The notes: a model not told the origin generated them from the letters alone. A DNA stretch of 32,655 bases from Acidobacteriota bacterium (GCA_030609975.1 JAUWSR010000002.1:1-32655), one strand, 5' to 3'. Counted from the stretch's first letter, positions 2,459-32,655 are shown. Program-made: numbers and translations.

Positions 2459-2538
2459 GTTTTCCTCCCGTTTGATCTTCCGTTGGTCATATCTTTAGAC
2501 TCTCTAGAAAGGAAAATCTTCCCGAATGATAACGCGTC

Positions 2539-3747
2539 TTACAATGGCTTTAGCGAGGGATAAAGAACCGCTCCTTCGATCTCCACCAAAAGTTCCGGTC
2601 GGCAGATATCGGATACGACGTATAGTATAGGCACTCGGCCGTAAGCTTTTTCGCAGATACTTTTAACCAGGGGAATATCTGGAGCGTATTTGACATAGAC
2701 CCGTAGGTAAGAAAAAGGATCGGGTTCGGATTCGGGCTGGAATCCGGCTTGTTCAAGGTTCTGCCGGGAGGTGAGTTCGGCGATGTTCTCAATGGTGGTT
2801 TGAGTCTGTGCCGCGACATCCCCTATACCAACGGTTTTTTGCCCCCGGATCGAGGCGGTTCCTGAGACATAGATCAAGCCAGAATTGTTGTCACTGACCA
2901 ATTTGGCCCGTTCGAATTTTGGGGAGGTTTTTTTAGGGACGGATGAGATGGGTACTCCCACTAAAACCTCTTGAGAATAACGATGTGCATCCTGCTGCTG
3001 AGGGTTGGAGAGAGGCACGATGTTCAGGCTTTGGTCCGCAGCCAGGGCAAAACATTCCAGGACGATCCCACCTGCGTTGGCGCCGATCCCGGTGGCTGAA
3101 GGGTAGCCGTGCTTGAAGTCAGACGGAGCGTAAAACGTGGTTCTCACGTCATTGAAGACTTGATAATTTTGCCGTTCCCCTTTTCCTTCGTGTTTTCTGC
3201 CGACGATGTTTTCGACATAGTTCCACTGCCGGACGATGCTGCTGAAATCCATGTCCTCGGCACAGAGTATTTCTGACAGGATCTCAAATGCACCTTGGGA
3301 TTGTGTAAGGATCCGGCTGGATCTGTTTCCAATGGTCAGCCCTGCGGCATAGATCTCCCTCCGATCGGGATATTGCACCAGAGTATAGGCGATCTTTTCC
3401 CGGCTTTTGTAGAAAACCGAAACGTTTGGGTCGGGTCTTCTCAGCACCGTGGCCTCGAGAGACACCTGTCGCTCCTGTTCAGGAGGTTGGGCTACAAAGC
3501 TGACGGCAGGCATCTTCTCCGGGAAATAGTCCTGTAGTTCCGAGTGGAGAGCCGCTTTTGTTTTAAAATAATCGAGATTATCTTTAGATTTCAAAAAAAA
3601 AGTCAGCTTAAGGAGTTTTTCTTGTTGGTCTGCAGTGCCTGCGATCGCTGCTTTGAGCTGACCCAGACATTCCCGCATCTCGGCAGCGGGCGATGGGCCG
3701 GCGCCGGGAACAAAGCGCAAAAAACCTAAACTCGAAATCCTTGTCAT
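2539..3747 (-). CDS. Chorismatase (chorismate pyruvate-hydrolase) of the FkbO/Hyg5/XanB2 family, with a tandem YjgF/RidA-like fold
   Basis: Family-typical blocks are present: IVRQWNYVENI, ERQNYQVFNDVR, YPSATGIGANAGG, SPKFERA, IYVSGTASIRGQKTVGIGDVAAQTQTTIENI, LRVYVKY and VVSDICRPELLVEIEG. The start ATG overlaps the aroC stop (ATGA at 3744-3747). Confidence 0.7.
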   Translation of the reverse strand: MTRISSLGFLRFVPGAGPSPAAEMRECLGQLKAAIAGTADQQEKLLKLTFFLKSKDNLDYFKTKAALHSELQDYFPEKMPAVSFVAQPPEQERQVSLEATVLRRPDPNVSVFYKSREKIAYTLVQYPDRREIYAAGLTIGNRSSRILTQSQGAFEILSEILCAEDMDFSSIVRQWNYVENIVGRKHEGKGERQNYQVFNDVRTTFYAPSDFKHGYPSATGIGANAGGIVLECFALAADQSLNIVPLSNPQQQDAHRYSQEVLVGVPISSVPKKTSPKFERAKLVSDNNSGLIYVSGTASIRGQKTVGIGDVAAQTQTTIENIAELTSRQNLEQAGFQPESEPDPFSYLRVYVKYAPDIPLVKSICEKAYGRVPILYVVSDICRPELLVEIEGAVLYPSLKPL

Positions 3748-8910: not shown

Positions 8911-9188
8911 TCCATGTCCCCTTTATCCTGAATCATTCATAAGAAATGTCAATATATACTGTAACCATAGTATTATTGGAATTCTATGTTAGCTTTAGAA
9001 ATAAGCATTCAATTTTTTTCGGTTTCGATGTTAGTTTTGTTATTAATCGACATTTCTTACCCTTCGGGCGAGCTGATCTCACTGTACCTGTTTCGTTACA
9101 AAGGATTCGCGGTGGACCACCACAGCCTCATCCTTTGTGCCTCGCATCTACAGTAATCTCAACTCGTGAATAATCCAGGATAGATGAG

Positions 9189-10019: not shown

Positions 10020-10038
10020 ATATTTCTTAAGTGACCAT

Positions 10039-10067
10039 ATTTTAGCGCTTTAAGCAGATAATATCAA
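10039..10067 (-). promoter_or_regulatory. Candidate sigma70-type promoter of the aro operon (TTGATA-17-TAAAAT on the minus strand)
   Basis: The -35 element is at 10062-10067 and the -10 at 10039-10044, with a 17-nt spacer. It lies about 20 nt upstream of the DAHP synthase ATG. This is sequence inspection only. Confidence 0.4.
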
Positions 10068-10104
10068 TAGGAATTAGCCGTCAGATAATTTTCATAATTT
10101 GAAT

Positions 10105-10121
10105 TTGGGGACAGTCCCCAA
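10105..10121. promoter_or_regulatory. Perfect 17-bp palindrome TTGGGGACAGTCCCCAA (8+1+8), copy 1
   Basis: I read it directly. It sits in the AT-rich intergenic region about 40 bp upstream of the candidate aro -35 element. An identical copy, apart from the central base, is at 19239-19255. Confidence 0.6.
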
Positions 10122-10292
10122 GATAAGTTTGATTTTAAATAAGTTAGCTGGAATTTTCATGCAAAAATGAGCTTAAAATTGAGTTTTTACCCCCAAAACC
10201 TGGAAGCTAAGCTAAGATATGGAAAAGAACTTTCAAGAAAATCCCACGGCATCCGAAAACAAACAGGAATCTTTACATTAGCTAGGTTTGAT

Positions 10293-12245: not shown

Positions 12246-12326
12246 TTTATATCTTTCTGCCTCATAACGTTTACGTTGTGCAATCGGAGAATAAACACTA
12301 TAGCCAAGATTGTGACAGGTCCAGGC

Positions 12327-14738: not shown

Positions 14739-14795
14739 GACAATTGAACTCCTTTAAAGAGGGATTGAATATGAGGAGGTCTCTTGGATAAGTGT

Positions 14796-14824
14796 TTGAC
14801 CATGATTCCTGCGTTGAGTAATAT
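14796..14824 (+). promoter_or_regulatory. Candidate sigma70-type promoter of the GH51 gene (TTGACC-17-TAATAT)
   Basis: The -35 element is at 14796-14801 and the -10 at 14819-14824, about 50 nt upstream of ATG 14877. Confidence 0.45.
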
Positions 14825-14876
14825 AACAGATGTGAAATCTCATGTGAAATGTCTTTTACTAAAAGGAGGGGAAGCC

Positions 14877-16436: not shown

Positions 16437-16454
16437 CGGTGGATAATCTGAATA

Positions 16455-18428: not shown

Positions 18429-18517
18429 GCAAATATCATATCATAACAGGCTTTTTCCATAGCAAGCCAATTCTTTGCTCTGTCCTGCCAAGCCCTTGTG
18501 TCTTTGCTCCTCTCTGT

Positions 18518-18546
18518 TTGCTTCGTCCCCATGAGTATGCTATATA
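18518..18546 (+). promoter_or_regulatory. Candidate promoter of the HAD gene (TTGCTT-17-TATATA). Only 9 nt separate the -10 element from the ATG, which would give a near-leaderless mRNA.
   Basis: The -35 element is at 18518-18523, the -10 at 18541-18546 and the ATG at 18556. Confidence 0.3.
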
Positions 18547-18555
18547 TTCGGCAAC

Positions 18556-19209
18556 ATGGATTATGGGGCCATTTTTGATATGGATGGGGTGATCGTCAAC
18601 AACATGGGCTATCACGCTCAAGCTTGGGCGGGATTTTTTAAACGATACAATCCCCCCATGGAATTTGAAAAATTCATGTTGCATTTCGGTAGGACCAATA
18701 GAGATCTCTTCGGCGTACTCTTCGATCGGGATCTGACTGAGGAGGAAGCAGAGCGTTATGGAGAAGAAAAAGAAGCCCTTTACCGAGAGGTTTATGCTCC
18801 CTATGTCGAACCTGTTCCCGGGCTGGTTGACTTTTTAAAAGAACTTAAAGAGAACGGAGTTTTAACTGCGGTTGCGACCTCGGCACCCCGGGTGAATCTG
18901 GACTTTATTTTCGATCACATTCCGATCCAGCCTTTCTTCGATGCCGCTGTCGATTCCTCGGATGTGACCATCGGAAAACCTGACCCAGAGATCTTTCTGA
19001 AGGCGGCAGCCAAATTGAATTGCGCAGTTTCGCAGTGCGTTGTTTTTGAAGACTCCTTTGCCGGGATCCAATCCGGGAAAAATGCAGGGATGAAGGTCGT
19101 GGGATTGGCCACCTCGCATGCCCCCGAGAAGCTTAGGGATACCGACTGGGTCATATGTGATTTTTCGGAGATCACATTGGAAGATATGAAAAGATTATTG
19201 GCTATTTAG
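18556..19209 (+). CDS. HAD-IA family hydrolase (beta-phosphoglucomutase / sugar-phosphatase-like)
   Basis: Motif I is FDMDGVIV, motif II is VATSA, and motifs III/IV are KPDPEIF...VVFEDSFAGIQSGKNAGM. Confidence 0.8.
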   Translation: MDYGAIFDMDGVIVNNMGYHAQAWAGFFKRYNPPMEFEKFMLHFGRTNRDLFGVLFDRDLTEEEAERYGEEKEALYREVYAPYVEPVPGLVDFLKELKENGVLTAVATSAPRVNLDFIFDHIPIQPFFDAAVDSSDVTIGKPDPEIFLKAAAKLNCAVSQCVVFEDSFAGIQSGKNAGMKVVGLATSHAPEKLRDTDWVICDFSEITLEDMKRLLAI

Positions 19210-19238
19210 TTTTAGGGAGTCATTTTTAGCAACACTTC

Positions 19239-19255
19239 TTGGGGACTGTCCCCAA
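19239..19255. promoter_or_regulatory. Perfect 17-bp palindrome TTGGGGACTGTCCCCAA, copy 2
   Basis: I read it directly. It lies 30 nt after the HAD stop and 26 nt before the symporter ATG at 19281. Confidence 0.6.
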
Positions 19256-19280
19256 ATGCACAAATGCAGATGGAGAGATC

Positions 19281-21071
19281 ATGGTACTACAAGCGATCGA
19301 TTGGGCTTTTATCATTGGATTTTTTGTTTTCTCCCTCATTGTGGGCTTGGCGGTTACCAAGCGTGCCGGATCCAGCGCCACCGAATTCTTTCTCTCCGGC
19401 CGGAATATGCCCTGGTGGCTGTTGGGCGTGTCCATGGTGGCCACCACTTTTTCCACGGATACACCCAACCTGGTGACGGATATTGTCAGGCAGAATGGTG
19501 TGGCGGGAAACTGGGTGTGGTGGGCCTTCCTGCTGACAGCTATGCTCACGGTTTTTGTGTATGCCAAGCTGTGGCGTCGCTCCCAGGTTGTCACCGACCT
19601 CGAATTCTACGAGCTCCGTTATTCCGGCAAGCCTGCCGCATTCTTACGCGGCTTTAGAGCGCTTTACCTCGGCATCTTTTTTAACGTGCTGATCATGGCC
19701 ACCGTATCTCTGGCCATCATCAAGATAGCAGGAGTCATGCTCAAGCTGACCCCTTTGCAGACACTCCTGATCGCCTGCGTGGTGACCACTCTCTACAGCA
19801 CCTTAGGCGGCCTCCGCGGGGTTCTCATCACGGATTTTTTCCAGTTCGGAATAGCCATGATCGGTTCCGTGGGAGCGGCCATTGTGGCTCTCAGGCTTCC
19901 CCAAGTAGGCGGCCTCGGTTCTTTGCTCACGAATGAGAATGTGGCGGGTAAGCTCAGCTTGCTCCCGGATTTTAACAATTTTGAGATACTGGTCCCACTG
20001 TTTATTCTGCCCCTGGCCGTGCAGTGGTGGAGCGTGTGGTATCCTGGAGCGGAGCCTGGAGGCGGAGGATACATCGCACAGCGGATGCTGTCAGCCCGCT
20101 CGGAAAAGCATGCCGTGGGCGCCACCTTCCTGTTCACGGCCACCCACTATGCCTTGCGTCCCTGGCCCTGGATCATTGTGGCTCTCTGCAGCCTGGCGGT
20201 CTTCCCCAACCTGGAGTCTTTACAGGCCGCCTTTCCCCACGTCGATCCCAGTGTGATGAGGCACGATCTGGCTTACCCCGCTATGTTGACCTTTCTCCCC
20301 GCCGGACTGTTGGGATTGGTCGTGGCTTCACTGATCGCGGCCTTCATGTCCACCATTTCCACCCATCTCAACTGGGGCTCTTCTTATATTGTCAACGATT
20401 TTTATAAGCGCTTCCTCAATCCGGAGGCAAGCGAAAAACAACAGGTCCGGGTAGGCCGGATCTCAACGGTCGTGTTGATGCTGCTCGCCTGTGCCTTAGC
20501 TTTACTTCTGAGCAATGCTCTTCAGGCTTTTAACATTCTGCTGCAGGTGGGGGCGGGAACCGGGCTGATCTTTATCCTGCGTTGGTTTTGGTGGCGGATC
20601 AATCCCTACAGTGAGCTCACAGCCATGGTCGTGTCATTCTTGATCGCTCTCTACCTACAGGCCATCCATCCCCGGCTGGGGCTGCCGATATTGGCCAACC
20701 ACATCCAGCTCCTGCTGGGAGTGGGGATCACCACGGTGTGTTGGGTCGCGGTCACTCTCTTGACCAAGCCTTCAGACGCCCCGACGCTGCGCTCCTTCTA
20801 CCGTCTGGTAAAACCAGGAGGACCGGGTTGGGAAAAAGTGATCGCGGCTGCTGCGCTGGACAATGATCCGGTGGAAGAGCCCGGTCAGGGATGGGATGTT
20901 CCGGCAGGAGTTGTGTGTATGGCGCTGGGCTGCCTGGCGATCTACAGTGCGCTCTTTGCCATCGGCTCCTGGATCTACGGGAGGAGTTCTTTGGCGGCGG
21001 TCTTGACGGCTATAGCCGTGGTCTCCATGTATACTCTGGTGATTGCCTGGAAAAAGTTGAGAATTTTTTAG
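19281..21071 (+). CDS. Sodium:solute symporter family (SSF) transporter
   Basis: It is polytopic throughout, with the SSF-typical GGGYIAQRMLSARSEKHA and a LAVTKRAGSSATEFFLSGRNMPWW N-terminal block. I moved the start from TTG 19239, which lies inside the palindrome, to ATG 19281, which is preceded by GGAGAG. Confidence 0.8.
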   Translation: MVLQAIDWAFIIGFFVFSLIVGLAVTKRAGSSATEFFLSGRNMPWWLLGVSMVATTFSTDTPNLVTDIVRQNGVAGNWVWWAFLLTAMLTVFVYAKLWRRSQVVTDLEFYELRYSGKPAAFLRGFRALYLGIFFNVLIMATVSLAIIKIAGVMLKLTPLQTLLIACVVTTLYSTLGGLRGVLITDFFQFGIAMIGSVGAAIVALRLPQVGGLGSLLTNENVAGKLSLLPDFNNFEILVPLFILPLAVQWWSVWYPGAEPGGGGYIAQRMLSARSEKHAVGATFLFTATHYALRPWPWIIVALCSLAVFPNLESLQAAFPHVDPSVMRHDLAYPAMLTFLPAGLLGLVVASLIAAFMSTISTHLNWGSSYIVNDFYKRFLNPEASEKQQVRVGRISTVVLMLLACALALLLSNALQAFNILLQVGAGTGLIFILRWFWWRINPYSELTAMVVSFLIALYLQAIHPRLGLPILANHIQLLLGVGITTVCWVAVTLLTKPSDAPTLRSFYRLVKPGGPGWEKVIAAAALDNDPVEEPGQGWDVPAGVVCMALGCLAIYSALFAIGSWIYGRSSLAAVLTAIAVVSMYTLVIAWKKLRIF

Positions 21072-21140
21072 GGGACGGTTCTATTTATTTTGTGATAAGG
21101 TTGATCGTTAAATATGGCTAAAATAAATAGAACCGTCCCC
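21071..21140. repeat. Perfect 21-bp inverted repeat (21071-21091 / 21120-21140) enclosing the permease start codon in a 28-nt loop
   Basis: The left arm is GGGGACGGTTCTATTTATTTT and the right arm is AAAATAAATAGAACCGTCCCC. The left arm begins at the last base of the symporter stop codon. The right arm covers codons 3-9 of the permease. Confidence 0.8.
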
Positions 21141-22466
21141 AATAAAGGACCGTCCCCAATAATTGAATTAAAAAAAGAATTTACACTTTATGGCCTCACC
21201 ATGGTGGCTATCGGTTCTTGTATCGGATCAGGCATCTTTCTCACTCCCTCCCAGATCGCCGGTCACCTGCCCACCCCCCTTCTGATTCTTTTGGTATGGG
21301 CTATCGGCGGAGTCATAGCACTCACCGGGGCCCTGACCTTTGCCGAACTGGGATCCATGTTCCCTCAGGCAGGAGGCGTTTATGTCTATCTCAAAGAAGC
21401 CTACGGAGACCTGTTTGGTTTTATGTATGGCTGGGTCTATCTGGTGGTCATTACCTCCGGAGCCAATGCGGCCCTGAGCATCGCCTGCGCCTACTATCTT
21501 GCCTTCATCTTCCCTTTGAGCCAGACCGGGATCAAGCTTGCAGCCATCGGGGCCTTGATCGTAGTTACCATCATCAACATCGTGCGAGTCAAGGCCGCCG
21601 AGATCTTTGCCAGTGTCTTCACCAGCCTGAAGCTCCTGGGCGTGGGAGCCATCATCGTGATCGGGATCGTATTCGGCAAGCAGGAGTTCAGTTTTTTTGA
21701 ATCCCAAGCCGGGGCTCCCTCCGGGAGTCTGCTGTCCGCCTTCGGTCTGGCGATGATCGGAGTGCTCTGGTCCTACGGGGGCTGGCAGCATGCCTCTTTT
21801 GTGGCGGGTGAAGCCAAAGATGCCTGCCGCATGGTCCCCCGCGCTATGATCCTGGGTGCTATCGTGGTATCTGTGGTCTATCTTTTGGCCAACCTGGCTT
21901 ATCTCTTCCTGCTTCCGGTGGAAGCCATCGCCTCCTCCCAGAGCCTGGCGGCCGATGCCGTCTCCACCATCCTGCCCTTCGGGGGAGTGCTTATTGCAGT
22001 GCTCATTGCGATTTCCACCTTTGGCACCTTGGGAATCTACACGCTCTCTGCGCCTCGCATCTATTATGCCATGTCGCGAGACGGTCTCTTTTTTAAAAAA
22101 CTTGCCTATGTCCATCCCCGCTTCCGGACCCCCATCTATGCCATTTTGGCCCAGTCTGTTTGGGCCGTGGTCCTGCTGCTTTTTTGGGGAACTTTCGAGG
22201 ATCTCATCACCTATGTCGTCTTCACTGATTGGATCTTTTTTGGTTTGACTGCCGTGGGAATCTTTATTTTTCGGCGTACCCGCAAGGACATGCCGCGGCC
22301 TTATAGGACTCTGGGTTATCCGATCGTCCCTCTGATATTTATCACCATTACCTTTGGATTTGTGATCAATGCCTTGATCGCAAAACCCGTTCATGCCTGG
22401 GCGGGACTGATCCTGATGGTCGTAGCCCTGCCTATATATTTTTCCTTCAAACGCCGGTCCAATTGA
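21114..22466 (+). CDS. APC-superfamily amino-acid permease
   Basis: The TM1 signature is LTMVAIGSCIGSGIFLTPSQIA, and about 12 hydrophobic segments are present. The length is 450 aa. The only in-frame start that preserves TM1 is ATG 21114. Confidence 0.85.
   Translation: MAKINRTVPNKGPSPIIELKKEFTLYGLTMVAIGSCIGSGIFLTPSQIAGHLPTPLLILLVWAIGGVIALTGALTFAELGSMFPQAGGVYVYLKEAYGDLFGFMYGWVYLVVITSGANAALSIACAYYLAFIFPLSQTGIKLAAIGALIVVTIINIVRVKAAEIFASVFTSLKLLGVGAIIVIGIVFGKQEFSFFESQAGAPSGSLLSAFGLAMIGVLWSYGGWQHASFVAGEAKDACRMVPRAMILGAIVVSVVYLLANLAYLFLLPVEAIASSQSLAADAVSTILPFGGVLIAVLIAISTFGTLGIYTLSAPRIYYAMSRDGLFFKKLAYVHPRFRTPIYAILAQSVWAVVLLLFWGTFEDLITYVVFTDWIFFGLTAVGIFIFRRTRKDMPRPYRTLGYPIVPLIFITITFGFVINALIAKPVHAWAGLILMVVALPIYFSFKRRSN
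21132..21162 (+). repeat. Direct repeat ACCGTCCCCAATAA (21132-21145 and 21149-21162) carrying the GTCCCCAA half-site twice
   Basis: I read it directly. Both copies lie within the first 17 codons of the permease ORF. Confidence 0.7.
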
Positions 22467-22491
22467 CCCTGATGAGTACCTGTGTTATAAA
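22463..22491 (+). promoter_or_regulatory. Candidate sigma70-type promoter (TTGACC-17-TATAAA) upstream of the 1330-aa ORF
   Basis: The -35 element at 22463-22468 overlaps the permease stop codon. The -10 is at 22486-22491, about 60 nt upstream of TTG 22551. Confidence 0.4.
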
Positions 22492-22550: not shown

Positions 22551-25500
22551 TTGAAAGACCCATTGAAGATTTCCTGGTCTTTTCTTTTTTCGCTGGCGCT
22601 CTTGACTGTGAGTCTGGCTGCGTTCACTCAGATCCTCTTCTATGTGCGGTATGAATCGTCTTATGACAGGTTTCATACCCAACATAAAGCTATCTATCGT
22701 GTTGAGGGGGAGCTGGTTCTGGAAACCGGCGCAAGTTACAAGCAGGCCACCACTCCCATGCCGCTCGCCCCTGTGCTGGTTGAGGAATTCAGCGAGATCA
22801 CACATGCCGTACGCTTCACTCGCCCCTATCCCAAGACGATCCTTTCCTCAGGGGAAAACCTCAAGTTCAGCGAGCGAGGTGGGATATGGGCGGATGCGTC
22901 CTTTTTTGAGATCTTCACCTTCCCTTTTATTTCTGGAAATGCGGAAACAGCGCTCTCGCAGCCGGGCTCTATCGTTTTGACGCGCTCGTTGTCCGAGAAG
23001 TACTTCCCGGACAGTGATGCCGTTGGACAGATCCTCAAGATCAATAATCTTACGGATTACTTGGTGACCGGAGTGGTGCAGAACGTCCCCCTCAGGTCTC
23101 ACTTTAGGTTTGATTTTATCGTCTCCTCGGATTTCTCCGGCAGAGTTGTAGGCAGCTGGCAATCCAGTACGGTCTTCACTTATATCCTGCTGCAGGCCCC
23201 GGCGAAAAATCCGTTAGAGGAAAAACTCAGCCGGGTGTTAGCTGACCATGGAGCCGGCGGCAACAAGCTTCTCCACTTGAAGCCTCTGACTCAAATCCAT
23301 CTTGGCTCCGATGTGCGCTTCGAATTTGAACACAATCAAACCAAAGGCATGATCGTGCTTTATCTGTGTTTGGCAGTCCTTCTCCTGATCCTGGCGGGCA
23401 TGAATCTGACAAATCTCTTTTTGTCCCAGGCTTCAGCTCCTGATCTTAAAGCCCTGCTGCGCCGTACCGTCCTTCTCGCTCTTCCTTCTGGGATTTTTGC
23501 ATCTCTACTGGCCGTTTTTTTTCTCCCGAGCTTTGGTCACCTGGTTCAGCTGCAGTGGGAGATCGTTTTGACGCGTTCCCTGTCCATGGTGCTGGCATCT
23601 CTTCTGGTGGCGTGGGCTCTGTGTTTGGGGACCGCCTTTTTTGCCAATCTGCTCCGAAAGACTTCGGCAGCTTCCCCTCAAGAGGACGAATCCGACCGAA
23701 GGCGGGAAGACGTTCTTTGGTTTAAAAGGCTGACTGTGGTGTTCAGCTTCTTTGTCGTATCCGTGCTGCTGCTTGCCGCGCTCCTTATCTTTCGTCAGTT
23801 TCAGCATCTGGAAAAGCAGGATTGGGGCATGCCGGACGGCCAGATAAAGATCATGGACCTTTCCAGTGTCAGCACAGAGAAGGAAAATCGTACTGCGCTT
23901 TTTCGGAACGAGTTGCTAAGAAATCCCAACGTTCTCAGCGTGACCAACGCCTTAAGCCTGCCTTTTACGCTGCATGGAACCTCGACTGCATCCATGAACG
24001 CGGTTGCCCCGGATCATGAGATCTTGGTCGACATAAATTTTGTGGATGAAGGATTTGTGGATACCTTTGGACTGGAATATCTTGAAGGGGGCGGCAACAC
24101 TGCCGTGCCGGAAGGAGTTTGGATCTGTATTTTTAATGAGAGCGCGGCGCGAGCTTTTCTCCCTGAACAAGAGATCCCTGAGTACAGTGACCTTGTAGGA
24201 AAAGAGGTGAGATTCAGCGGCAACGCTTTCTCCACCGTGATTGGTGTGGTCAAAGACTTTCCCATTTCTTATAAAAAGGACCGTATCGAACCTCTGATCC
24301 TGATTTCTCAGCAGGGACGATTCTCCTCGCATCCTCAGGTTGCTATCAGGCTGTACACCGCAGGAGTCCCAACCACACTTGAATTTATCCAGAATCGGTT
24401 TGAATTCATTTTTCCTGAGGATGTATTCGAGATTTGGTCTTTTTCGGATACATCCCAAGGTTTTTTTCGAGCTGAACAGGTTCATGCGCGTATCTTATTT
24501 TATGTTTCTTTGGCAGCCCTCTGTCTGGCGCTCTTGGGTTTGGGCGGCATGGAGGTGTCCGGTCCTTCGTGGCAGAGAGAAAACAAGATCAGCCTGATCC
24601 TGGCGGGAAACCTGATCGCATGGCCTCTGGTATATCTGGCGGTCGAGTCCTGGTTGGGCCGCTTTGCCTTGAAAGCCGAGATTCCTCTCTGGCTGTTCCT
24701 GGCCTCGGGTCTAGTTCTTTTGCTCCTGGCCTTGTTGATTGTCAATGTACGCATGATTCCCTACTGGCTGCGGGGGATCAAGTGGGTGATTTTTTATCTG
24801 TGTACCTGGTTGATCATCGAGCCCCGCTTTATCTACAGTGGCTTTGGCATTATGCAAGAGATGCCCGCCTTTCGACCTGAGGATTCCCTGCTCCAAGCCC
24901 TTGTGGAGAGGCCGGGAGGGATGATCGAGACGCTGTCAGGCTTTTTATCCCAGTTTTACTATATTCCCTGGGTGGGAGCCTTGATTATCACTGTGGTTGC
25001 CTGGGCGCTCAGTTTGTGTTTAGGGCAGCTGCTCCTGCGGGTAACAGGCAAGCGTTCCAGATTCTTTCGTTATGTGCCGGCTCTGCTTGTCTTCATGCTC
25101 TCTAACCAGTACGAACATGTGTTGGCAATGGCCCTGGCGCTGCTGGTCGTCCTCCTTTCCGCCTGTGGATTTGATAGACTTCCCCTTTCCCGTAGCAAAG
25201 CTAAAGCGGCTCTTTTTGTCCTGTTTTTTGTCGGTCTTTATCTCTTAGCGGGCAGTGCGTGTTTGATATTTGCGGCTGTAGCTGTGCTGTTTGTTGTCTT
25301 TCAACATCGGGATTACATCTTGGCGGGTGGAATGAGTCTTTTGTCTTTGCTGCTGTGCTTTGTTTTGCATATGCTTTTATTTGATACGGGCGTTGTGCCT
25401 TTTTTTGGTGATCTTCCAGCTATGCTTTTGGGGAAAACCACGTCCTTGGTAACCCTGCTCCGAGTGTGTCTGTTCCTGGCCGTCCCGGTGATATTGGCAG

Positions 25501-26543
25501 CCTGGTTTTTAGGCAAATCGCTGGGTTTCCACAAATTCTCTCTGCCCCGTGTCAGGTTATGGTCGGCTGCCGGTTTGACTCTGCTGTTTATCCTTACGGT
25601 ATGGATATCTTCAAATCCTGAACAAAAGATGCTGCATAAGATGATCCACTATGCCAGGCATGAGAATTGGTCCCAGATCCTGGAGCAAGCGCGGGAAATG
25701 CCGAGGGGTTTGTACAATATGTACATGAATTATCAGACCAATCGTGCCCTATACCATACCGGCCGCTTAGGAGATGAGATGTTCGTTTTTGTCCAGGATA
25801 TGGAGGCCCAAGCTCTGATCGCTTTGGAAGATGAGCGCTATGTCATGCGGGATATCGCCATCTCCGATATCACCTCGGATATGGGGGCGTTGAATATATC
25901 CGAACATCTTTCTCATGAACTCATGGAGGTTTCGGGAACCAGCCCGTTTCTAGCAGAGCGATTATTTTGGATAAATTTTGGAAAAAAACAGTATGAGAAC
26001 GGTCGTATTTTTTTGAATGCTTTTTCGAGAGATATTGTCCACGGAGACAGAGGCCGCGACGTGTTGCGAAGATTAGAAGTCGATCCTCAATTGACCGGAT
26101 CCGGGAAGGTCAGATATCTGAACTCCGTAGTGCTGGAAACGGACTATGCCAACATCGATGTTGAAACCCTGCTGCTGGCCTTGCTGGAGAAAAACAGGTA
26201 TAACCGGATGGCCTTTGAATATCTTATGGGCTACTATCTCATGACGAGGCAGGTGGACAAGGTGGTCGAGAATCTGGGCCGCTTGGATGACTTCGGCTAC
26301 ACAGAGATCCCTATCCATTATGAGGAAGCCATCTATTTGTATGCTTTAAATACCGGAGAGGATATCGAGCTGGGATGGCGCAGTATAAGGCCCGATACCA
26401 TCCGGCGTTTTGAGGCATTTGCCCGCATCATGGCCGATGTCAACCGGCCCAGTCAACAGGAGGCGTTGTTGAATCTTGCCCGGGAGCATCCCGGCAGTTA
26501 TTTCATCTATTACTCCTTCGACAGATCCGGGGTGATCGAATGA
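22551..26543 (+). CDS. Fusion protein. The N-terminal approx. 740 aa are a degenerate duplicated MacB-periplasmic-domain/FtsX-like permease. The C-terminal approx. 590 aa are a polytopic membrane domain plus a helical-repeat domain (DUF6057-like from memory only).
   Basis: It is a single open frame with a TTG start. FtsX-type blocks are YDRFH, NELLRNPNVLSV, VDEGFVDTFGLEYLEGG and LIAWPLVYLAVESWLGRFALKAEIPLWLFLASG, which parallels the fragment at 31977-32312. The KEIGIRKxLGA-type cytoplasmic motif is absent from both modules. After about 24774 there are further TM helices (FLSQFYYIPWVGALIITVVAW...) and then a soluble helical C-terminus. Confidence 0.6.
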   Translation: MKDPLKISWSFLFSLALLTVSLAAFTQILFYVRYESSYDRFHTQHKAIYRVEGELVLETGASYKQATTPMPLAPVLVEEFSEITHAVRFTRPYPKTILSSGENLKFSERGGIWADASFFEIFTFPFISGNAETALSQPGSIVLTRSLSEKYFPDSDAVGQILKINNLTDYLVTGVVQNVPLRSHFRFDFIVSSDFSGRVVGSWQSSTVFTYILLQAPAKNPLEEKLSRVLADHGAGGNKLLHLKPLTQIHLGSDVRFEFEHNQTKGMIVLYLCLAVLLLILAGMNLTNLFLSQASAPDLKALLRRTVLLALPSGIFASLLAVFFLPSFGHLVQLQWEIVLTRSLSMVLASLLVAWALCLGTAFFANLLRKTSAASPQEDESDRRREDVLWFKRLTVVFSFFVVSVLLLAALLIFRQFQHLEKQDWGMPDGQIKIMDLSSVSTEKENRTALFRNELLRNPNVLSVTNALSLPFTLHGTSTASMNAVAPDHEILVDINFVDEGFVDTFGLEYLEGGGNTAVPEGVWICIFNESAARAFLPEQEIPEYSDLVGKEVRFSGNAFSTVIGVVKDFPISYKKDRIEPLILISQQGRFSSHPQVAIRLYTAGVPTTLEFIQNRFEFIFPEDVFEIWSFSDTSQGFFRAEQVHARILFYVSLAALCLALLGLGGMEVSGPSWQRENKISLILAGNLIAWPLVYLAVESWLGRFALKAEIPLWLFLASGLVLLLLALLIVNVRMIPYWLRGIKWVIFYLCTWLIIEPRFIYSGFGIMQEMPAFRPEDSLLQALVERPGGMIETLSGFLSQFYYIPWVGALIITVVAWALSLCLGQLLLRVTGKRSRFFRYVPALLVFMLSNQYEHVLAMALALLVVLLSACGFDRLPLSRSKAKAALFVLFFVGLYLLAGSACLIFAAVAVLFVVFQHRDYILAGGMSLLSLLLCFVLHMLLFDTGVVPFFGDLPAMLLGKTTSLVTLLRVCLFLAVPVILAAWFLGKSLGFHKFSLPRVRLWSAAGLTLLFILTVWISSNPEQKMLHKMIHYARHENWSQILEQAREMPRGLYNMYMNYQTNRALYHTGRLGDEMFVFVQDMEAQALIALEDERYVMRDIAISDITSDMGALNISEHLSHELMEVSGTSPFLAERLFWINFGKKQYENGRIFLNAFSRDIVHGDRGRDVLRRLEVDPQLTGSGKVRYLNSVVLETDYANIDVETLLLALLEKNRYNRMAFEYLMGYYLMTRQVDKVVENLGRLDDFGYTEIPIHYEEAIYLYALNTGEDIELGWRSIRPDTIRRFEAFARIMADVNRPSQQEALLNLAREHPGSYFIYYSFDRSGVIE

Positions 26544-28084
26544 AAATGCAGGGTATATCGTCTGGGTACCTGAGAAAAGGATTTTTCCTGCTGATATTGA
26601 TCCTGGGCTCTTTTTTCTGCAGAGCCGGTGTCGATCTGGATGAGGTGGACGAGGTGCTGCGCTTTCCTCAGATCCAGCCCGACTATACTCGAACGGTGAT
26701 TCCCCCCAATATCGCCCCACTGAACTTTGCCGTGCTTGAACCAGGCGAGCGCTATTTTGTTAGGATCGGTTCTATCAAAGGGAAAAGCATCGAGGTGAAC
26801 AGTCGCGATTCCCGTATCATTATTCCCTTAAAATCATGGCGAGCATTGCTTGCTGAAAACCGCGGCAATTCCCTGTTTTTTGATGTCTATGTGAAAGACG
26901 ATGGCCTGAACTGGAAACATTTCAAGACCATACCCAACCAGATCGCAAACGAGGATATCGATGGGCACATGGCCTACAGAAAGATGAAGCCCATCTACAG
27001 TTTCTGGAGGAATATCGGGATCTACCAGCGGAGTCTGGAAAATTACGATGAATCCGTTATTCTGCATGGAAAAAGCTATGGGAACGGTTGTGTTAACTGT
27101 CATACCTTCAACCAGAACAGTCCGGATCGGATGTTCATCGGGATCCGGAGTCTCGACTACGGCAGCTCCACCCTCCTCGTCGAGAATGGGGAGGTACAGA
27201 AGATCGGAGCTAAATGGGGATATACCTCCTGGCATCCCAGCGGCCGCTGGGCCGTTTATCCAGTGATGAATGTCCACCAGTTTTTCCACTCAGGCGGCCT
27301 GGCCGTCCGGGATGTGATCGACCTGGATTCGGTCATGGTCTACTATGATCTGGAGGAGAAGAAGGTCAAGATAGAGGACGGGTTTTCGGATAAAGACCGC
27401 TTGGAGTCTTATCCCTGTTGGACTCCCGACGGCCGTACTCTCTACTTTTGCAGTGCCGCCATACCCTGGACGGACCGGACGCAGATCCCACCTGAGAATT
27501 ATGACCAGGTGAAGTACGACCTGAGGCGTATCAGTTTCGATCCCTCCACCGAGACCTGGGGAGAGACTGAGGAAGTCTTGTCCTCCCTTGAGACGGGAAA
27601 AAGCATCCTTCTCCCCCGCATTTCACCCGATGGTCGTTTTTTACTCTTTTGTATGTGCGACTATGGGGTTTTCCCGGTTTTTCGACCGAGCAGCGATCTA
27701 TATCTCATGGATCTGCAGACCATGTCCTACCGCCGTTTGAGCATAAACACTCAGTATTCCGAGTCCTGGCATTCCTGGTCGAGCAACAGCCGTTGGATGG
27801 TCTTCAGCAGCAAAAAGCAGGGAGGTGTGTTCACACGTCCCTATTTCAGCTACGTGGATTATAGCGGCAGAGTCTACAAATCCTTCGTGCTCCCACAGAA
27901 TGATCCGCTCTTTTATGCTTCCTTTCTCAAAACCTACAGCGTCCCCGAGTTTATTACGGGACCGATCAAGGTGAACACTCGGGCTCTCGCTCGGGCTGTG
28001 CGGTCGTCTGATATGATCAAGGTGGATACCTTCAGTTCGGCTTCACCGCAGCCGGGAAAGTCGAAAGCGCTTATCCGTGAATAG
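26540..28084 (+). CDS. Exported protein with one haem-c attachment motif (CVNCH) and a TolB/PD40-like beta-propeller
   Basis: The start overlaps the upstream stop (ATGA). The N-terminal hydrophobic segment is GFFLLILILGSFFC. CVNCH is at 27089-27103. Blade-like repeats are WHPSGRWAVY, WTPDGRTLYFCS, ISPDGRFLLFCM and WSSNSRWMVFSS. Confidence 0.6.
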   Translation: MKMQGISSGYLRKGFFLLILILGSFFCRAGVDLDEVDEVLRFPQIQPDYTRTVIPPNIAPLNFAVLEPGERYFVRIGSIKGKSIEVNSRDSRIIIPLKSWRALLAENRGNSLFFDVYVKDDGLNWKHFKTIPNQIANEDIDGHMAYRKMKPIYSFWRNIGIYQRSLENYDESVILHGKSYGNGCVNCHTFNQNSPDRMFIGIRSLDYGSSTLLVENGEVQKIGAKWGYTSWHPSGRWAVYPVMNVHQFFHSGGLAVRDVIDLDSVMVYYDLEEKKVKIEDGFSDKDRLESYPCWTPDGRTLYFCSAAIPWTDRTQIPPENYDQVKYDLRRISFDPSTETWGETEEVLSSLETGKSILLPRISPDGRFLLFCMCDYGVFPVFRPSSDLYLMDLQTMSYRRLSINTQYSESWHSWSSNSRWMVFSSKKQGGVFTRPYFSYVDYSGRVYKSFVLPQNDPLFYASFLKTYSVPEFITGPIKVNTRALARAVRSSDMIKVDTFSSASPQPGKSKALIRE

Positions 28085-28231: not shown

Positions 28232-28591
28232 ATGTTTCTCATTCCTTCTGGCATTCTCCTGCATTACATCTCTGGAAAGCCGGCTTTTCTTAACGATCCG
28301 ACTTATCCCTATGATGGCATCACAACGTGTGCCCACTGTACCGCTCCCAGGAAGATGAACGGCAGAGACTACGAGCCGGCGAAAATCGTCACACACTTTG
28401 AGTCAAATTACGGCGCTACTCCGAAAGTTGAATTCAGCAAAGGCCAGGTCATAACAAACCTCATCCCCAGTTTCAGTTCTAAGAAATGGATAGGATTCAG
28501 GGGGAAAATCACAGACCATCCCTTCTATGACATCTGCCGCTCACAGATTGATCTGGAGATTGACCGGAATTGGGAAATCGCAGGGGATTAG
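28232..28591 (+). CDS. Hypothetical protein, 119 aa, no family recognised
   Basis: It is an ATG-started ORF with AAGGA 8 nt upstream and contains a CAHC motif. I found no recognisable domain, and coding status is uncertain. Confidence 0.3.
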   Translation: MFLIPSGILLHYISGKPAFLNDPTYPYDGITTCAHCTAPRKMNGRDYEPAKIVTHFESNYGATPKVEFSKGQVITNLIPSFSSKKWIGFRGKITDHPFYDICRSQIDLEIDRNWEIAGD

Positions 28592-28704
28592 ACGCAAGGG
28601 ACTTAGAATCCTCCGGGAAAAGATTTCGAGGATGTAGTCATTTCCACATGCCTGGTATTTGTAAAAAGGCAGGTTCATTAAAAATGATTTCTAAAAATGG
28701 CCTC

Positions 28705-29888
28705 TTAAATCCTGTTCAATGCCTGGTCAACATCACTTATGATATCTTCCGGATCTTCGAGACCCAACGAAAATCGAATCATCTGGGGAAGGACTTTGGC
28801 AAGCTCCAGCTCCTCCGGCGTCTGCCAGGCATGGATGATATGACCGGAATACTCACCAGAGTTTCGACTCTCCCCAGGCTGGTTGCATTAAGACATAGCT
28901 CAAGGTTGTCCACAACCTTCATGGTTTCTTTCTTTCCGCCTTTTACAACGATGTTTACCATGCCTCCGAAACCTTTCATCTGTTTTTTTGCTGTCTTGTG
29001 ATAGGGATCATCGGGAAGGCCGGGATAATTAACATTCTCGACTTTCGGGTGGTTTCTTAAAAATTCTGCCAGTTTCATGGCATTTTCATTCTGACGTTGG
29101 ACGCGAACTTCAAGCGTTTTAAGGCTGCGCAGCAGTAAGAATGAGGCAAACGGATCCAATGTGGGGCCATACATGTGCATTCTCTCATTGCATTCGTGAA
29201 TAAAATCTTTCGGCCCGACTGCAGCACCTGCGAGGACATCACTGTGACCCCCCAGGTACTTTGTTCCGCTGTGAACCACATAGTCGACACCCATGGTGAT
29301 TGGCTGCTGATTGACAGGGGTGGCAAATGTATTATCGATCATCGTCTTTAAGCCGAGATCACGGGCCTGCTTTGTAATCTCCTCAATATCGATTATCTGC
29401 AGAATCGGATTGGTGGGCGACTCGAAGTATAAGAGTTTGGTCCGTGGGGAGACATGTCTTTCAAGCGTATAGAGGTCTTCCACCATTAAGAATTTCGAAT
29501 GAATCCCATACTCCTCAGGCAGCCCTTTGCGGAGAAAATTGAGGGTCTGCCCATAAAGTGTGGCCGGTGCAATCACCTCATCCCCCTTTTTCACAACCGA
29601 AAGAATGGCATTTGTAATCGCTGCTACACCTGAAGAAAAAACAAGGGCATCCTCTGCCGACTCCAGCAGCGCCAACCGTTCGTTCAGCACATCCTGAGCC
29701 GGATTGCCGAACCTTACGTATTCATGCTGGTTCATCTCCCTGTGTACGATACAGCGCTCCATAGCATCTGTGTTCGGAAAAATATAGGTCGATGATTGAT
29801 AAATCGGCACAGTCACAGGTGCGCTTTTGCCCTTGTTGGATTCGTTGCCGTGAATAGCTCGTGTTGCAAAACCATATTCTAAAGCCAT
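28705..29888 (-). pseudogene. Cys/Met-metabolism PLP-dependent enzyme (cystathionine gamma-synthase/beta-lyase/methionine gamma-lyase family) with a frameshift near 28841-28848
   Basis: The PLP-lysine block is VVHSGTKYLGGHSDVLAGA. The listed ORF ends in the unrelated ...SSMPGRRRRSWSLPKSFPR. In another frame the conserved family C-terminus QTPEELELAKVLPQMIRFSLGLEDPEDIISDVDQALNRI continues to TAA at 28705-28707. The span of 1184 nt is 2 mod 3. Confidence 0.8.
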
Positions 29889-29968: not shown

Positions 29969-31711
29969 TCACTGAAGCCCTTTTTTTCCGAAGCGGAGGA
30001 TTCTTCCTGAGCCGATCTCCACATAATCATCGCCATAAGCATTTCTGAATAACTGAATGGCCTGATCACCCGTACAGTGGGTGGCGCCGCATTTTTTTAC
30101 ACCCAGTTCCCTGAAATCTTTTATGATAGCCTCGACCTGCTCTTCTGAATGCCTCATCAGATGAAATCCGCCGAAGACAAGATAAATATCTCGATTCAAT
30201 ATTTCTTTTGCCCTCTTCAGGATGTTGACGATGCCCTGGTGGGAGCAGCCGGTAACGATGATCAGGCCCAGAGGGGTGTTGACGATGAGGGACTGTTCCT
30301 TGATGCTCTCCCCCATCTGTCCCGTCAGGTAGACGTGATCACAAACTGCGACCGCCTCGTTGACCGGAACAACCTTTGCGCCGGAAACTTCTACCTGGCG
30401 GACAAAATCGTAGGGAAAACTAAAGGGGATGTAGAGCGGAGCATGCGTGTTGGTCTCAAAAACAACGGGTAGCCCTCCGATATGATCCCAATGTTCATGG
30501 GAGAGGACGACGGCATCTGCAGCCTGAAGATCGACGGCAAGGTGCTGCACATTGTGTCTGAATGTATCCGGGTTTCCTCCCGTGTCGAAAAGGATTGTGT
30601 CCTTGGTGCCTTGGATCAGACAGGAAAATCCCCACTCCGCTTTGGTCCCTTCGGCAGCCACATAGTTGTCATAGAGGACAGTCATTGTAATGGGCTTAGT
30701 TTCCCCCTGGCCGATATTTGCAGGGACCTCCTGTCCACCCATAGATTTTATGTCCTTAGAGCTCGGTTGGCCTCCTCGGTCTTTGAGAAACTGAACGGCC
30801 TCTGATTGTCCGGCCATAATGGCGTAATCCGGAGGTGTTCGGCCCTGATCGTTTTTGGCGTTATGGCCGGCGTTTTTATCGAGCAGCGCGGCAGCGGCTT
30901 TGGTGTTTCCATGCCAGGCCGCGCCATGGAGGGCTGTATCGCTGTTTGAGTCGGTCCGGTCGGCTTTCGCACCCGTTTCGACAAGATACGCAACAAGGTC
31001 TCCTCTGTTGTAATAAGCTGCCAGAGACAGGGGAGAGAGGTCATGGCTGTCTGCCAATTCGATATCGGCGCCTTCAGCGATTAAAAGCTTGGCCAAGTCC
31101 GTTCTTCCGTCAATGCACATCTGATGAAGCGGCGAATAACCTGTTGTATCCTTTTTGTTGACGTCGGCACCCTTGGAGATTAAGAGGCGGGCGAGCTTCT
31201 CATGGCCGCCCCATAAGGCATAGAGTAGAGGGCCGCGTTTGAAGTTGTTGTAAACATCGACAGTAGCGCCTTTGTCCAGCAGAAGCTGGAAGATCTGTTC
31301 GTTGCCTTGTCTGGCGTTAAAAAAGAGAGGCGTTCTCCCGTTGACTTCCCGGGCATTCACATCCGCGCCTTTTTCGAGCAGCAAGTGCGCACATTCCGGA
31401 CGGCCGTAGGATGCGGCAAAATGAAGAGGAGTCATTCTATTGTTGTCTCCTGCATCAATATCCGCCCCTTTTTCGATCAGGAAGCCGACGATTTCGGTCC
31501 TGCCCAGTACGGATGCAAGCAGAAGCGGTGTCAGGTTATCGGGGCTTCTGGCTTCTAAAAGCCGAGGGTTTTTTTCCAGTATAGTCTGGATGGCTTTGAG
31601 GTCTCCACTGGCTACAGCCTCGTGAATGTCTGCTGTCCAGGAAAAGGAGGCAGAGACAAAAAGAGTAACTAAGAATCCAAGAATTAAGATGTGAAAAAGA
31701 TAAGTCTTCAT
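29969..31711 (-). CDS. Secreted ankyrin-repeat (about 9 repeats) / metallo-beta-lactamase-fold fusion protein
   Basis: The start is set at ATG 31711, with GGAGG 6 nt upstream. The signal peptide is MKTYLFHILILGFLVTLFVSASF. Repeated TPLH..A...G......LL..GAD.. units are present. The C-terminal MBL domain has SHEHWDHIGG and VTGCSHQGIVN. Confidence 0.8.
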   Translation of the reverse strand: MKTYLFHILILGFLVTLFVSASFSWTADIHEAVASGDLKAIQTILEKNPRLLEARSPDNLTPLLLASVLGRTEIVGFLIEKGADIDAGDNNRMTPLHFAASYGRPECAHLLLEKGADVNAREVNGRTPLFFNARQGNEQIFQLLLDKGATVDVYNNFKRGPLLYALWGGHEKLARLLISKGADVNKKDTTGYSPLHQMCIDGRTDLAKLLIAEGADIELADSHDLSPLSLAAYYNRGDLVAYLVETGAKADRTDSNSDTALHGAAWHGNTKAAAALLDKNAGHNAKNDQGRTPPDYAIMAGQSEAVQFLKDRGGQPSSKDIKSMGGQEVPANIGQGETKPITMTVLYDNYVAAEGTKAEWGFSCLIQGTKDTILFDTGGNPDTFRHNVQHLAVDLQAADAVVLSHEHWDHIGGLPVVFETNTHAPLYIPFSFPYDFVRQVEVSGAKVVPVNEAVAVCDHVYLTGQMGESIKEQSLIVNTPLGLIIVTGCSHQGIVNILKRAKEILNRDIYLVFGGFHLMRHSEEQVEAIIKDFRELGVKKCGATHCTGDQAIQLFRNAYGDDYVEIGSGRILRFGKKGLQ

Positions 31712-31976
31712 GTTGACCTCCAGGAAATGATATTTCAACATGCATAAATAGCAAATAACATGCCAGTTTCACATTCTTGGGTATTCTAACACTTAAGAAA
31801 CATACGTGTATCATTAATTCACAGTTAATGTCCGTATTCGAACAGAAATAAATATTCCCCATATCAACTTTGTGACAGAGATTGGAATCAAAACGTCACC
31901 AAAGATGTCATGAGCACCTATTAACTTACCATCCTCATCAACCTCATAGGGATTTGTCGGATCGCTCATATCTGAA

Positions 31977-32312
31977 CTATTCGTACCGAAGGGAATCTAT
32001 CGGGTTGGCAACCGCTGCTTTTATGGCTTGATAGCTCACTGTCAACATGGAAATAACCAGTGCCAACGCTCCTGCCAATAAAAGTATCCACCAGCTAATT
32101 TCAATCCTAAAAGCAAAATTTTGCAGCCAATTTTTCATGGCATAAAAAGTAAGAGGCCAAGCGAGCACATTTGCCAGGATAACCCATTTAGTAAATTCCT
32201 TTGAAAGGAAAAAAGCAATTCCGGATGCAGAGGCACCCAACACTTTACGGATACCGATCTCTTTTGTACGCTGTTCGGAAATAAATGAGGCTAGTGTCAC
32301 GTCAATCATCAA
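31977..32312 (-). pseudogene. 3' fragment of an FtsX-family ABC transporter permease, truncated at its 5' side by the IS630-family element
   Basis: Only the last approx. 105 aa of an FtsX domain are present: LASFISEQRTKEIGIRKVLGAS...VLAWPLTFYAMKNWLQNFAFRIEISWW...AVANPIDSLRYE. Homology starts at about 32297, immediately after the transposase stop. Confidence 0.75.
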
Positions 32313-32655
32313 TTGTCGGATAAAGGCGTGATAATTTTATTCGAGCATCCTTGGTGGCAAACTGCCACTTCACCTTGGCGTCTTTGTTGTTTCTAAATTT
32401 CTGCCATGCCTGCACCTCTTTCCTGACAACCTCGATGTCGTCGATTCTTCTTTTCAAGCATTGTCCCGTGAGCACGTTCAACTCTATCTCTGCCATGTTC
32501 AGCCAGCTTCCATGCTTCGGGGTGTATACAAATTCAAATCGGTCCCATAACTCTTTTGCTTTGTCAGGCTGAAACGTTTCATAAAGCGCCCCTGGCTCAT
32601 GCGTGTTAAGGTTATCCATAACCAAGGTTATTTTTTCCACGCTCTCGTATCGGTC
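32302..32655 (-). mobile_element. IS630-family (Tc1/mariner-like DDE) transposase, C-terminal part. The element continues beyond the window end.
   Basis: Motifs are ITLVMDNLNTH and YTPKHGSWLNMAEIE...ARIKLSRLYP. The frame stays open upstream to position 32655 (DRYES...). Confidence 0.8.

Follow-up and report, generated by a model that had tools for sequence, protein, structure and literature searches.

MacB/FtsX permeases are understood as machines that relay the movement of an ATPase to periplasmic domains. In MacB, a major coupling helix between transmembrane helices 2 and 3 (TM2 and TM3) and a minor one at the C-terminus both touch the ATPase (PMC5985334). The present analysis deals with a stretch of 32,655 nucleotides from an Acidobacteriota bacterium (GCA_030609975.1, JAUWSR010000002.1:1-32655), here called the window, in which a protein of this plan is joined, within one open reading frame (ORF), to a complete DUF6057 domain (PF19529), and is followed by the gene of a predicted exported beta-propeller protein with a CVNCH motif. 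The MacB/FtsX-type scaffold and the catalogued DUF family were both already known, while their joining is new.

The type VII permeases of the MacB/LolCE/FtsX kind, in particular the duplicated, approximately 800-aa "ADOP-type" proteins, share with the fusion the order of TM1, a MacB periplasmic core domain (MacB_PCD) and three TM helices, repeated twice. Unlike them, the fusion lacks the major and minor coupling helices, a match to the FtsX family PF02687, an ADOP-level score and a nearby ATPase, its C-terminus continues into another membrane protein, and in its sister fusion clusters the match to permeases breaks off before the final stretch of FtsX module 2 is reached. Stand-alone DUF6057 proteins (approximately 630 aa) correspond almost end to end to the C-terminal part, including the first helix, the periplasmic loop motif PGGxxE...FLSQ and the motifs of the helical domain, and are accompanied by the same propeller gene. 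However, the permease-derived N-terminal extension of 740 aa was found in the fusion lineage only, and in none of 78 genome loci surveyed.

TolB and CpoB (YbgF) likewise bring an exported PD40 propeller with an N-terminal non-propeller domain beside a periplasmic domain of the tetratricopeptide repeat (TPR) type. In contrast to that system, the partner scores far below the TolB cutoffs and the TPR-like domain forms the tail of a protein with seven TM helices. The gene tables that were read show no Tol or Pal family, and TolB is not known to carry a CXXCH motif. The haem-c propeller enzymes (cytochrome cd1 nitrite reductase, hydrazine synthase, quinohaemoprotein dehydrogenases) resemble the partner in being exported proteins that combine one CXXCH with a propeller, but they show no sequence match to it and have the generic propeller fold alone in common (template modelling score about 0.3). 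Moreover, the partner has no separate cytochrome domain, its motif being located between a beta-sandwich domain and the propeller.

The permease half and its ATPase-docking parts

ORF calling confirmed a single uninterrupted frame of 1330 aa with a TTG start, as the earlier note on this DNA had described it, and its TGA stop shares four bases (ATGA) with the ATG start of the 514-aa partner. The positions of all features are collected in Table 1. A separate Pfam scan of aa 1-750 gave two matches to MacB_PCD (PF12704) with 78 bits together at a cutoff of 27, the MacB-like periplasmic core domain being kept in both modules of the permease half. PF02687 (cutoff 25.5 bits) did not match aa 1-400, 401-750 or 1-750 even at E<=10; it matches a truncated paralogue in the window (31977-32312) at 41 bits. 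Among the NCBIfam models, ADOP (TIGR03434) stayed below its cutoff of 622, with 95 bits when the full protein was scanned and 104 bits when only aa 1-750 were, and the match to the DarB permease was also sub-threshold. Residues 1-740 are 28-30% identical to canonical duplicated permeases, a profile built from 92 of these matches aa 14-734 with an E-value of 5e-137, and all eight TM helices are retained in the window's own clade. The duplicated MacB/FtsX plan, earlier proposed for the first 740 or so residues, holds. A PDB sequence search with the permease half returned one weak match to a periplasmic domain (3is6), and a literature search on orphan duplicated FtsX permeases gave nothing useful.

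The coupling segments were compared in an alignment of the fusion, four fusion homologues and 16 canonical duplicated permeases of approximately 800 aa. In module 1, the canonical STARSxxRAKEVGMRKVxGAxRxQLIxQF is replaced by LSQASAPDLKALLRR and a 16-residue gap. In module 2, a 21-residue gap takes the place of RTKEIGIRKVLGAT...LLSK and leaves only SWQRENK. The C-terminal NPxxxLRxE tail is missing as well, the chain passing from RMIPYWLRG into IKWVIFYLCTWLIIEP, which is the first DUF6057 helix, and the N-terminus is approximately 8 residues shorter than in the canonical proteins. Because both coupling segments and the C-terminal tail are lost or replaced in these alignments, all three ATPase-contacting elements known from MacB are missing in the fusion. 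The loss of the coupling helices from both modules and the shortened N-terminus had been noticed before; the minor coupling helix can now be added to the list.

No ABC (ATP-binding cassette) ATPase gene is present in the 32.7-kb window, in agreement with the first reading of the locus, nor does any such family appear in the gene lists of the loci L001, L002, L007, L086 and L087, which also carry the fusion. Duplicated permeases of the ADOP-like type are often encoded apart from their ATPase, and the lack of an adjacent ATPase gene therefore counts for little by itself.

Module 2 had been said to align almost residue for residue with the paralogue at 31977-32312. The alignment is indeed gapless over 54 residues, but the identity amounts to just 35% (69% positives). 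With its 111 aa, this paralogue corresponds to the C-terminal part of a canonical FtsX permease; it lies directly beside a fragment of a DDE_3 transposase (31977-32640 for the two, minus strand), and it was probably truncated by an insertion sequence at the contig end. The "good" sigma70-like promoter reported upstream of the fusion gene did not stand up: TTGACC-17-TATAAA is present at 22463-22491, but the last base of its -10 box does not satisfy the rule of the scan, and the region holds fewer promoter-like sites than its shuffles, so that no weight can be given to it.

Conservation of the fusion and of the DUF6057-propeller pair

A search of 5.8 billion proteins revealed the fusion architecture in six proteins, with identities from 100% to 36%; one of these sequences is partial, and the other five are full-length. 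PF19529 is found in all six and PF12704 in five, the partial protein being without it, while PF02687 is recorded in none of them, as against 114 out of 114 canonical relatives among the matches listed. An exhaustive HMMER search of 1.84 billion cluster representatives yielded one fragment and, with clustering at 50% identity, five clusters of fusions (P0002 and P0365-P0368), the identities going down to 34%. Among the close relatives, the only one with a name is a metagenome-assembled genome (MAG) labelled Candidatus Aminicenantes. In all five other loci read (L001, L002, L007, L086 and L087), an intact fusion gene is followed by a partner gene of approximately 510 aa, and the 4-bp overlap of start and stop also recurs in L001, L007, L086 and L087. 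The neighbourhood of fusion and CXXCH propeller that the earlier note had proposed to survey is thus conserved, and the junction at about 24774, where a stop or frameshift in orthologues was looked for, is intact in the relatives.

The ratio of nonsynonymous to synonymous substitution rates (dN/dS) was computed by domain between the window and L007. It was 0.17 for the fusion overall, with 0.13 for periplasmic domain 1, 0.42 for FtsX block 1, 0.18 for periplasmic domain 2, 0.11 for FtsX block 2, 0.20 for the membrane part of DUF6057 and 0.12 for its helical part; the partner protein gave 0.11. The FtsX transmembrane blocks were read as the parts under least constraint and the periplasmic domains as strongly constrained, as is seen when block 1 is set against periplasmic domain 1. 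In the comparison with the 37%-identical fusion of L001, no part of the fusion protein is better conserved than periplasmic domain 1 (52% identity), and FtsX block 1 is among the worst (25%). The permease profile match of P0365-P0368 ends at position 662-690 of about 800, and in the alignment P0006 has TM7 and TM8 deleted, a loss of a helix pair which leaves the orientation of DUF6057 unaffected. Since low dN/dS and the highest identity are found in the periplasmic domains, and the coupling parts and FtsX block 1 are lost or diverged, selection retains the periplasmic domains and lets the ATPase-facing parts go. The five clusters, the intact loci with their partner gene and a dN/dS of 0.11-0.42 in every domain show that the fusion is genuine, conserved and under selection.

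The C-terminal 590 residues of the fusion are a complete DUF6057 domain (aa 771-1323, 244.8 bits at a cutoff of 29.8, profile positions 35-568 of 569), which confirms a resemblance pointed out earlier; the family is one of unknown function. Its own first helix is kept in the fusion as WVIFYLCTWLIIEP (consensus FFxLFxLYLWLxxEP in an alignment with 101 homologues). An AlphaFold2 model of DUF6057 is all-helical, with a predicted local distance difference test score (pLDDT) of 92 and a predicted template modelling score (pTM) of 0.91. Foldseek found no solved structure in the PDB below E 0.07 for this model, all matches being TPR proteins aligned via the C-terminal half, a PDB search with the DUF6057 profile found nothing, and a Pfam scan of 43 members gave weak TPR matches only. 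A GT-C fold was considered and dropped, no GT-C entry being among the 50 Foldseek matches listed. Invariant polar residues gather in the helical domain (NRALYHTGRL, NRMAFEYLMA, IPRHYEEA), and the membrane part has almost no conserved polar residues. Because the N-terminus is positively charged, seven hydrophobic peaks can be counted and the loop before the last helix is strongly positive (family-mean net charge +7.8), the positive-inside rule would place the N-terminus of DUF6057 inside and, after seven helices, its helical domain in the periplasm. The whole fusion would then have 15 helices, eight of them from the permease half, and three large periplasmic domains.

In Pfam, the partner matches PD40 repeats only. 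Its residues 9-27 form a hydrophobic N-terminal segment, modelled as a helix, which predicts export, and the protein thus combines a putative export signal with CXXCH, the sequence criterion of a c-type cytochrome. C184, N186, C187 and H188 are invariant in an 18-sequence alignment, together with many Trp, His, Asp, Glu and Cys residues. Only one homologue out of 120 is without CxNCH (119 have it), and the same holds for the close ORFs from genomes, where 89 of 90 have it and the remaining one has CVHCH. More than 6,000 homologues exist, still 55-60% identical in Planctomycetota and across phyla (best match in the genome collection: 61% identity), and they carry the names "TolB family" or "PD40 domain-containing" only. 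In the AlphaFold2 model (pLDDT 80, pTM 0.81), the propeller is joined to a beta-sandwich domain and a helix at the N-terminus. With it, Foldseek returned generic propellers only, at template modelling scores of about 0.3; weak fold matches include the hydrazine synthase beta subunit and thiocyanate dehydrogenase. The TolB models TIGR02800 and NF002183 reached 26-27 bits over two blades at cutoffs of 343-405, and a PDB profile search gave weak TolB blades only, with E 0.36 or worse. Sequence, Pfam and model thus agree with the export signal, haem-c motif and PD40 blades first ascribed to this protein.

A genome scan with one genome per species provided 78 loci, in all of which ORFs were called and searched with profiles built here. 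Planctomycetota prevail among them, most loci belonging to Sedimentisphaerales, Phycisphaerae and Pirellulales, others to Latescibacterota, Aegiribacteria, Armatimonadota and Sumerlaeia; one cultured strain, Novipirellula herctigrandis CA13, has the plain pair. In 73 of the 78 loci, DUF6057 and the propeller gene are direct neighbours and share a strand, with DUF6057 upstream in 49 and downstream in 24. Among the other five, a contig end interrupts two, and in two more DUF6057 is likewise the neighbour but lies on the opposite strand. The conserved unit is therefore DUF6057 with the CxNCH propeller, the permease not belonging to its core, and not the coupling of FtsX with a haem protein that had been suggested, as these 73 loci have no fused permease. 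Since no permease is fused to DUF6057 in any of the 78 loci, we read the permease half as a late, lineage-specific addition to a DUF6057-propeller envelope module. A separate permease near the pair was seen as one weak, distant match in the 78 loci, on the basis of which the idea of the fusion as a "Rosetta stone" for a general permease partnership was rejected.

The pair is multiplied in some Pirellulales MAGs: four tandem DUF6057-propeller pairs are found in L042 (1-12328), and four tandem DUF6057 paralogues precede a single propeller gene in L004 (1-9551) and L008 (1799-11509). Distant paralogues of the partner, with CGNCH and a PD40 propeller, are encoded near plain pairs in L055 (2570-7602, minus strand), L081 (4834-7302, minus), L059 (11796-14102, plus) and L051 (5589-7277, plus); they have 766-822 aa, apart from one ORF cut by the contig end. 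All three full-length ones scanned carry classical TPR repeats fused at the C-terminus, and this direct fusion of distant CGNCH propellers to TPR repeats supports a propeller-TPR partnership. Within the full-text, Pfam and PDB searches made here, no paper, Pfam family or solved structure explains DUF6057 or its partner. A full-text search for "DUF6057" gave zero papers, in line with the earlier statement that no system of such composition had been described.

Table 1. Positions of the fusion gene, its parts, the partner gene and the chorismatase-like gene in the window
Feature	Positions	Strand	Basis
Fusion protein: degenerate duplicated MacB/FtsX-type permease (aa 1-740) and complete DUF6057 (aa 741-1330)	22551..26543	+	Pfam/NCBIfam, intact homologues, dN/dS
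Periplasmic core domain 1 (MacB_PCD, aa 33-262)	22647..23336	+	PF12704, 54.7 bits (cutoff 27)
Degenerate FtsX module 1 (TM2-TM4, aa 263-368)	23337..23654	+	No PF02687 match; most relaxed segment
Module 1, place of the missing major coupling helix: SQASAPDLKALLRRT, then 16-residue deletion relative to canonical permeases	23421..23465	+	Alignment
Periplasmic core domain 2 (aa 419-642)	23805..24476	+	PF12704, 25.8 bits alone; 78 bits for both copies
Degenerate FtsX module 2 (TM6-TM8, aa 643-740)	24477..24770	+	Alignment
SWQRENK, remnant where 21 residues including RTKEIGIRKVLGA are gone (module 2)	24567-24587	+	Alignment
DUF6057 membrane domain (aa 741-1022), about 7 TM helices	24771..25616	+	Pfam, alignment, AlphaFold2 model
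DUF6057 C-terminal helical-repeat (TPR-like) domain, predicted periplasmic	25617..26540	+	Model, fold search, positive-inside rule
Predicted exported partner, 514 aa: N-terminal hydrophobic signal, beta-sandwich domain, CVNCH, PD40 beta-propeller	26540..28084	+	Pfam, model
CVNCH, candidate haem-c attachment site (partner residues 184-188)	27089..27103	+	Motif conservation
Chorismatase-like gene (FkbO/Hyg5 N-terminal and RidA domains), end of shikimate operon	2539..3747	-	Domain scan, neighbour statistics

Neighbouring genes

Clustering of all ORFs of the loci brought out a chorismatase-like protein of approximately 370 aa (FkbO/Hyg5 N-terminal and RidA domains), which scores below the TIGR04444 cutoff. 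Its gene was found in 14 of the 78 genome loci, 11 of which have it on the strand of the pair and at most 700 bp away; the link between the two is statistical. In the fusion lineage it closes a shikimate operon. The chorismatase-like gene/shikimate operon abuts the pair in L001, L086 and L087; in L007 the operon is situated just upstream of the fusion gene, approximately 650 bp from it, with the chorismatase-like gene 6.6 kb from the pair. In the window the distance is 19 kb, with a glycan-use island of approximately 12 kb in between. A literature search on chorismatase in Planctomycetes gave nothing useful. LamG-domain proteins and sulfatases also recur near the pair, but they were set aside as partners, being very abundant in the genomes of these groups.

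The shikimate operon of the window (1784-10019, minus strand) is full, with genes for DAHP synthase, DHQ synthase, type I DHQase, a shikimate dehydrogenase-kinase fusion, EPSP synthase and chorismate synthase; an O-methyltransferase (1784-2458) and the chorismatase-like gene stand at its end. This content suggests that chorismate may be diverted to a product of the hydroxybenzoate type. Between chorismate synthase and the chorismatase-like gene, an HMGL-like gene (pyruvate-lyase/aldolase family) is found in L001 (16572-17516), L086 (12813-13808) and L087 (12329-13273), each on the minus strand; it is missing from the window's operon. The island (10293-22466) comprises two GH127 genes, an alpha-L-arabinofuranosidase, GH97, a HAD hydrolase, a sodium:solute symporter and an amino-acid permease. 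It looks like an insertion, since the shikimate operon and the fusion gene of L007 are only some 650 bp apart.

Divergently upstream of the fusion gene, a 370-aa gene without Pfam match occurs in L001 (8701-9813), L086 (4859-5971) and L087 (4281-5393), on the minus strand in each case, and is absent at that position in the window. DUF5128 genes were called on the contigs of L001 (two) and L087 (one). Downstream of the partner gene, two ORFs of 119 and 143 aa (28232-29001, plus strand) have no Pfam or NCBIfam match. The 143-aa ORF is probably not a gene, because it overlaps a Cys/Met pyridoxal phosphate enzyme gene (28779-29888) on the opposite strand. Further on (29969-31741, minus strand), a 590-aa protein combines several ankyrin repeats with a metallo-beta-lactamase-fold domain, an unusual bacterial architecture.

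Possible function of the module

The best explanation of the data as a whole, to which we would give about an even chance, is an envelope complex of DUF6057 and the CxNCH propeller onto which a motor-less permease scaffold has been fused. The two genes would encode this complex, with DUF6057 and the exported CxNCH beta-propeller as its conserved core. As the computations show, an upstream gene for a duplicated MacB/FtsX-type permease was in one lineage fused in frame to DUF6057, and after the fusion its ATPase-docking parts, that is the two major coupling helices between TM2 and TM3 and the minor one at the C-terminus, decayed. Most fusion lineages have additionally lost the last part of the second FtsX module, and P0006 its last two helices, while strong purifying selection has held both periplasmic core domains. 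The permease half would pass on no ATP-driven movement, an independence of the ATPase which is read from the sequence, and could act, next to the TPR-like domain, as two periplasmic binding or scaffold domains anchored in the membrane. The TPR-like domain would hold the propeller at the inner membrane, on its outer face. No other component is nearly as conserved as the propeller, which would be the catalytic or redox subunit with one c-type haem at CxNCH, and the DUF6057 subunit, variable and often multiplied, may give anchoring and specificity. As the weakest step, the chorismatase-like neighbour suggests a substrate or cofactor derived from hydroxybenzoate made from chorismate.

Several points weigh against this explanation. 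The contact between the TPR-like domain and the propeller is deduced from gene linkage and from the fused paralogues, and the function of the module is a guess made from sequence. The topology was drawn from hydrophobicity and charge counts, and a helix at model residues 99-112 was taken as non-crossing so that the count fits. Haem attachment is proposed from the motif, and CVNCH is modelled in a strand beside a low-confidence loop and not in the usual helix. With its few conserved polar residues, the membrane domain may have a role that exceeds or differs from anchoring. ATPase docking in some other way may be compatible with the sequence, and within the fusion lineage the link to chorismatase could reflect inherited gene order and not function.

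The N-terminal half could still be a working ABC permease which, with an ATPase encoded elsewhere, as for other "orphan" duplicated permeases, drives DUF6057 or the propeller by mechanotransmission. The near full-length match to the canonical profile, the weak ADOP and DarB matches, the eight TM helices kept in the window's clade and the strong constraint on FtsX block 2 would all fit such a permease. We nevertheless consider it improbable, as both major coupling segments are deleted or replaced, DUF6057 stands where the minor coupling helix should be, neither module matches PF02687 and the ADOP score is a fraction of its cutoff. In addition, the match of the other fusion clusters stops before the end of module 2, P0006 is without TM7-8, and no ATPase gene was found in the window or listed in the five other fusion loci. 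It is hardly credible that the long ORF was created by faulty assembly or represents a young pseudogene fusion without function. The TTG start might be taken as pointing that way, and so might L006, an 84%-identical relative in which the fusion gene (8406-12415) is split into ORFs of 532 and 804 aa. This break, however, is located inside periplasmic domain 2 at a run of seven G and not at the fusion junction, and is probably a long-read homopolymer error, of a typical kind, rather than a true pseudogene. P0002 and P0004 start at the aligned position, each with an initial Leu, and may share the TTG start; the junction is common to five independent intact loci and to the five clusters, and dN/dS is far below 1 throughout.

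For the partner, CxNCH could be a structural disulfide or metal site, the pair then forming a non-redox envelope scaffold comparable to TolB with the TPR protein CpoB. PD40/TolB blades are its only family matches, the fold search gives generic propellers, the motif lies in a beta-strand in the model, and the association with a TPR-like domain recalls the Tol-Pal operons. This alternative seems unlikely, though it deserves more attention than a working permease, because an invariant His directly after the second Cys in more than 200 sequences, including the distant paralogues, fits haem ligation better than a disulfide. The TolB scores, moreover, remain far below cutoff, and the cross-phylum identity and the many invariant residues look more like those of an enzyme. 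DUF6057 itself might instead be the enzyme, such as a GT-C-like glycosyltransferase or a polymerase/ligase that has a TPR domain in the periplasm and works on a glycan of the envelope, with the propeller as accessory. Enzymes of this sort have a similar overall plan, a helical domain in the periplasm coming after a polytopic membrane domain, and glycan-active genes are often nearby. Slightly less probable still than a working permease, this proposal has to contend with a confidently modelled fold without a solved match below E 0.07, whose matches were TPR proteins via the C-terminal half, with Pfam scans that gave weak TPR only and a PDB profile search that came back empty, and with a membrane domain devoid of conserved acidic or basic residues.

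Going beyond the envelope complex as such, we tentatively propose, as a possibility on the doubtful side, that DUF6057 and the CxNCH propeller, often with a chorismatase-like enzyme, may be an undescribed widespread envelope redox or processing system of Planctomycetota and several candidate phyla, with a membrane fold without solved relative, acting on or with a chorismate-derived aromatic. In the window, a mechanotransmission ABC permease that has lost its motor interface would then be reused as a passive periplasmic scaffold for this system. The fusion also draws attention to a large, uncharacterised pair of genes, of which glycan-degrading Planctomycetota often have several copies per genome and whose propeller probably carries haem, and the cultured N. 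herctigrandis CA13 with its plain pair offers a route to experiments. The periplasmic MacB/FtsX domains of the fusion, which are under strong selection without any known contact to an ATPase, provide a natural test of what these domains do alone.

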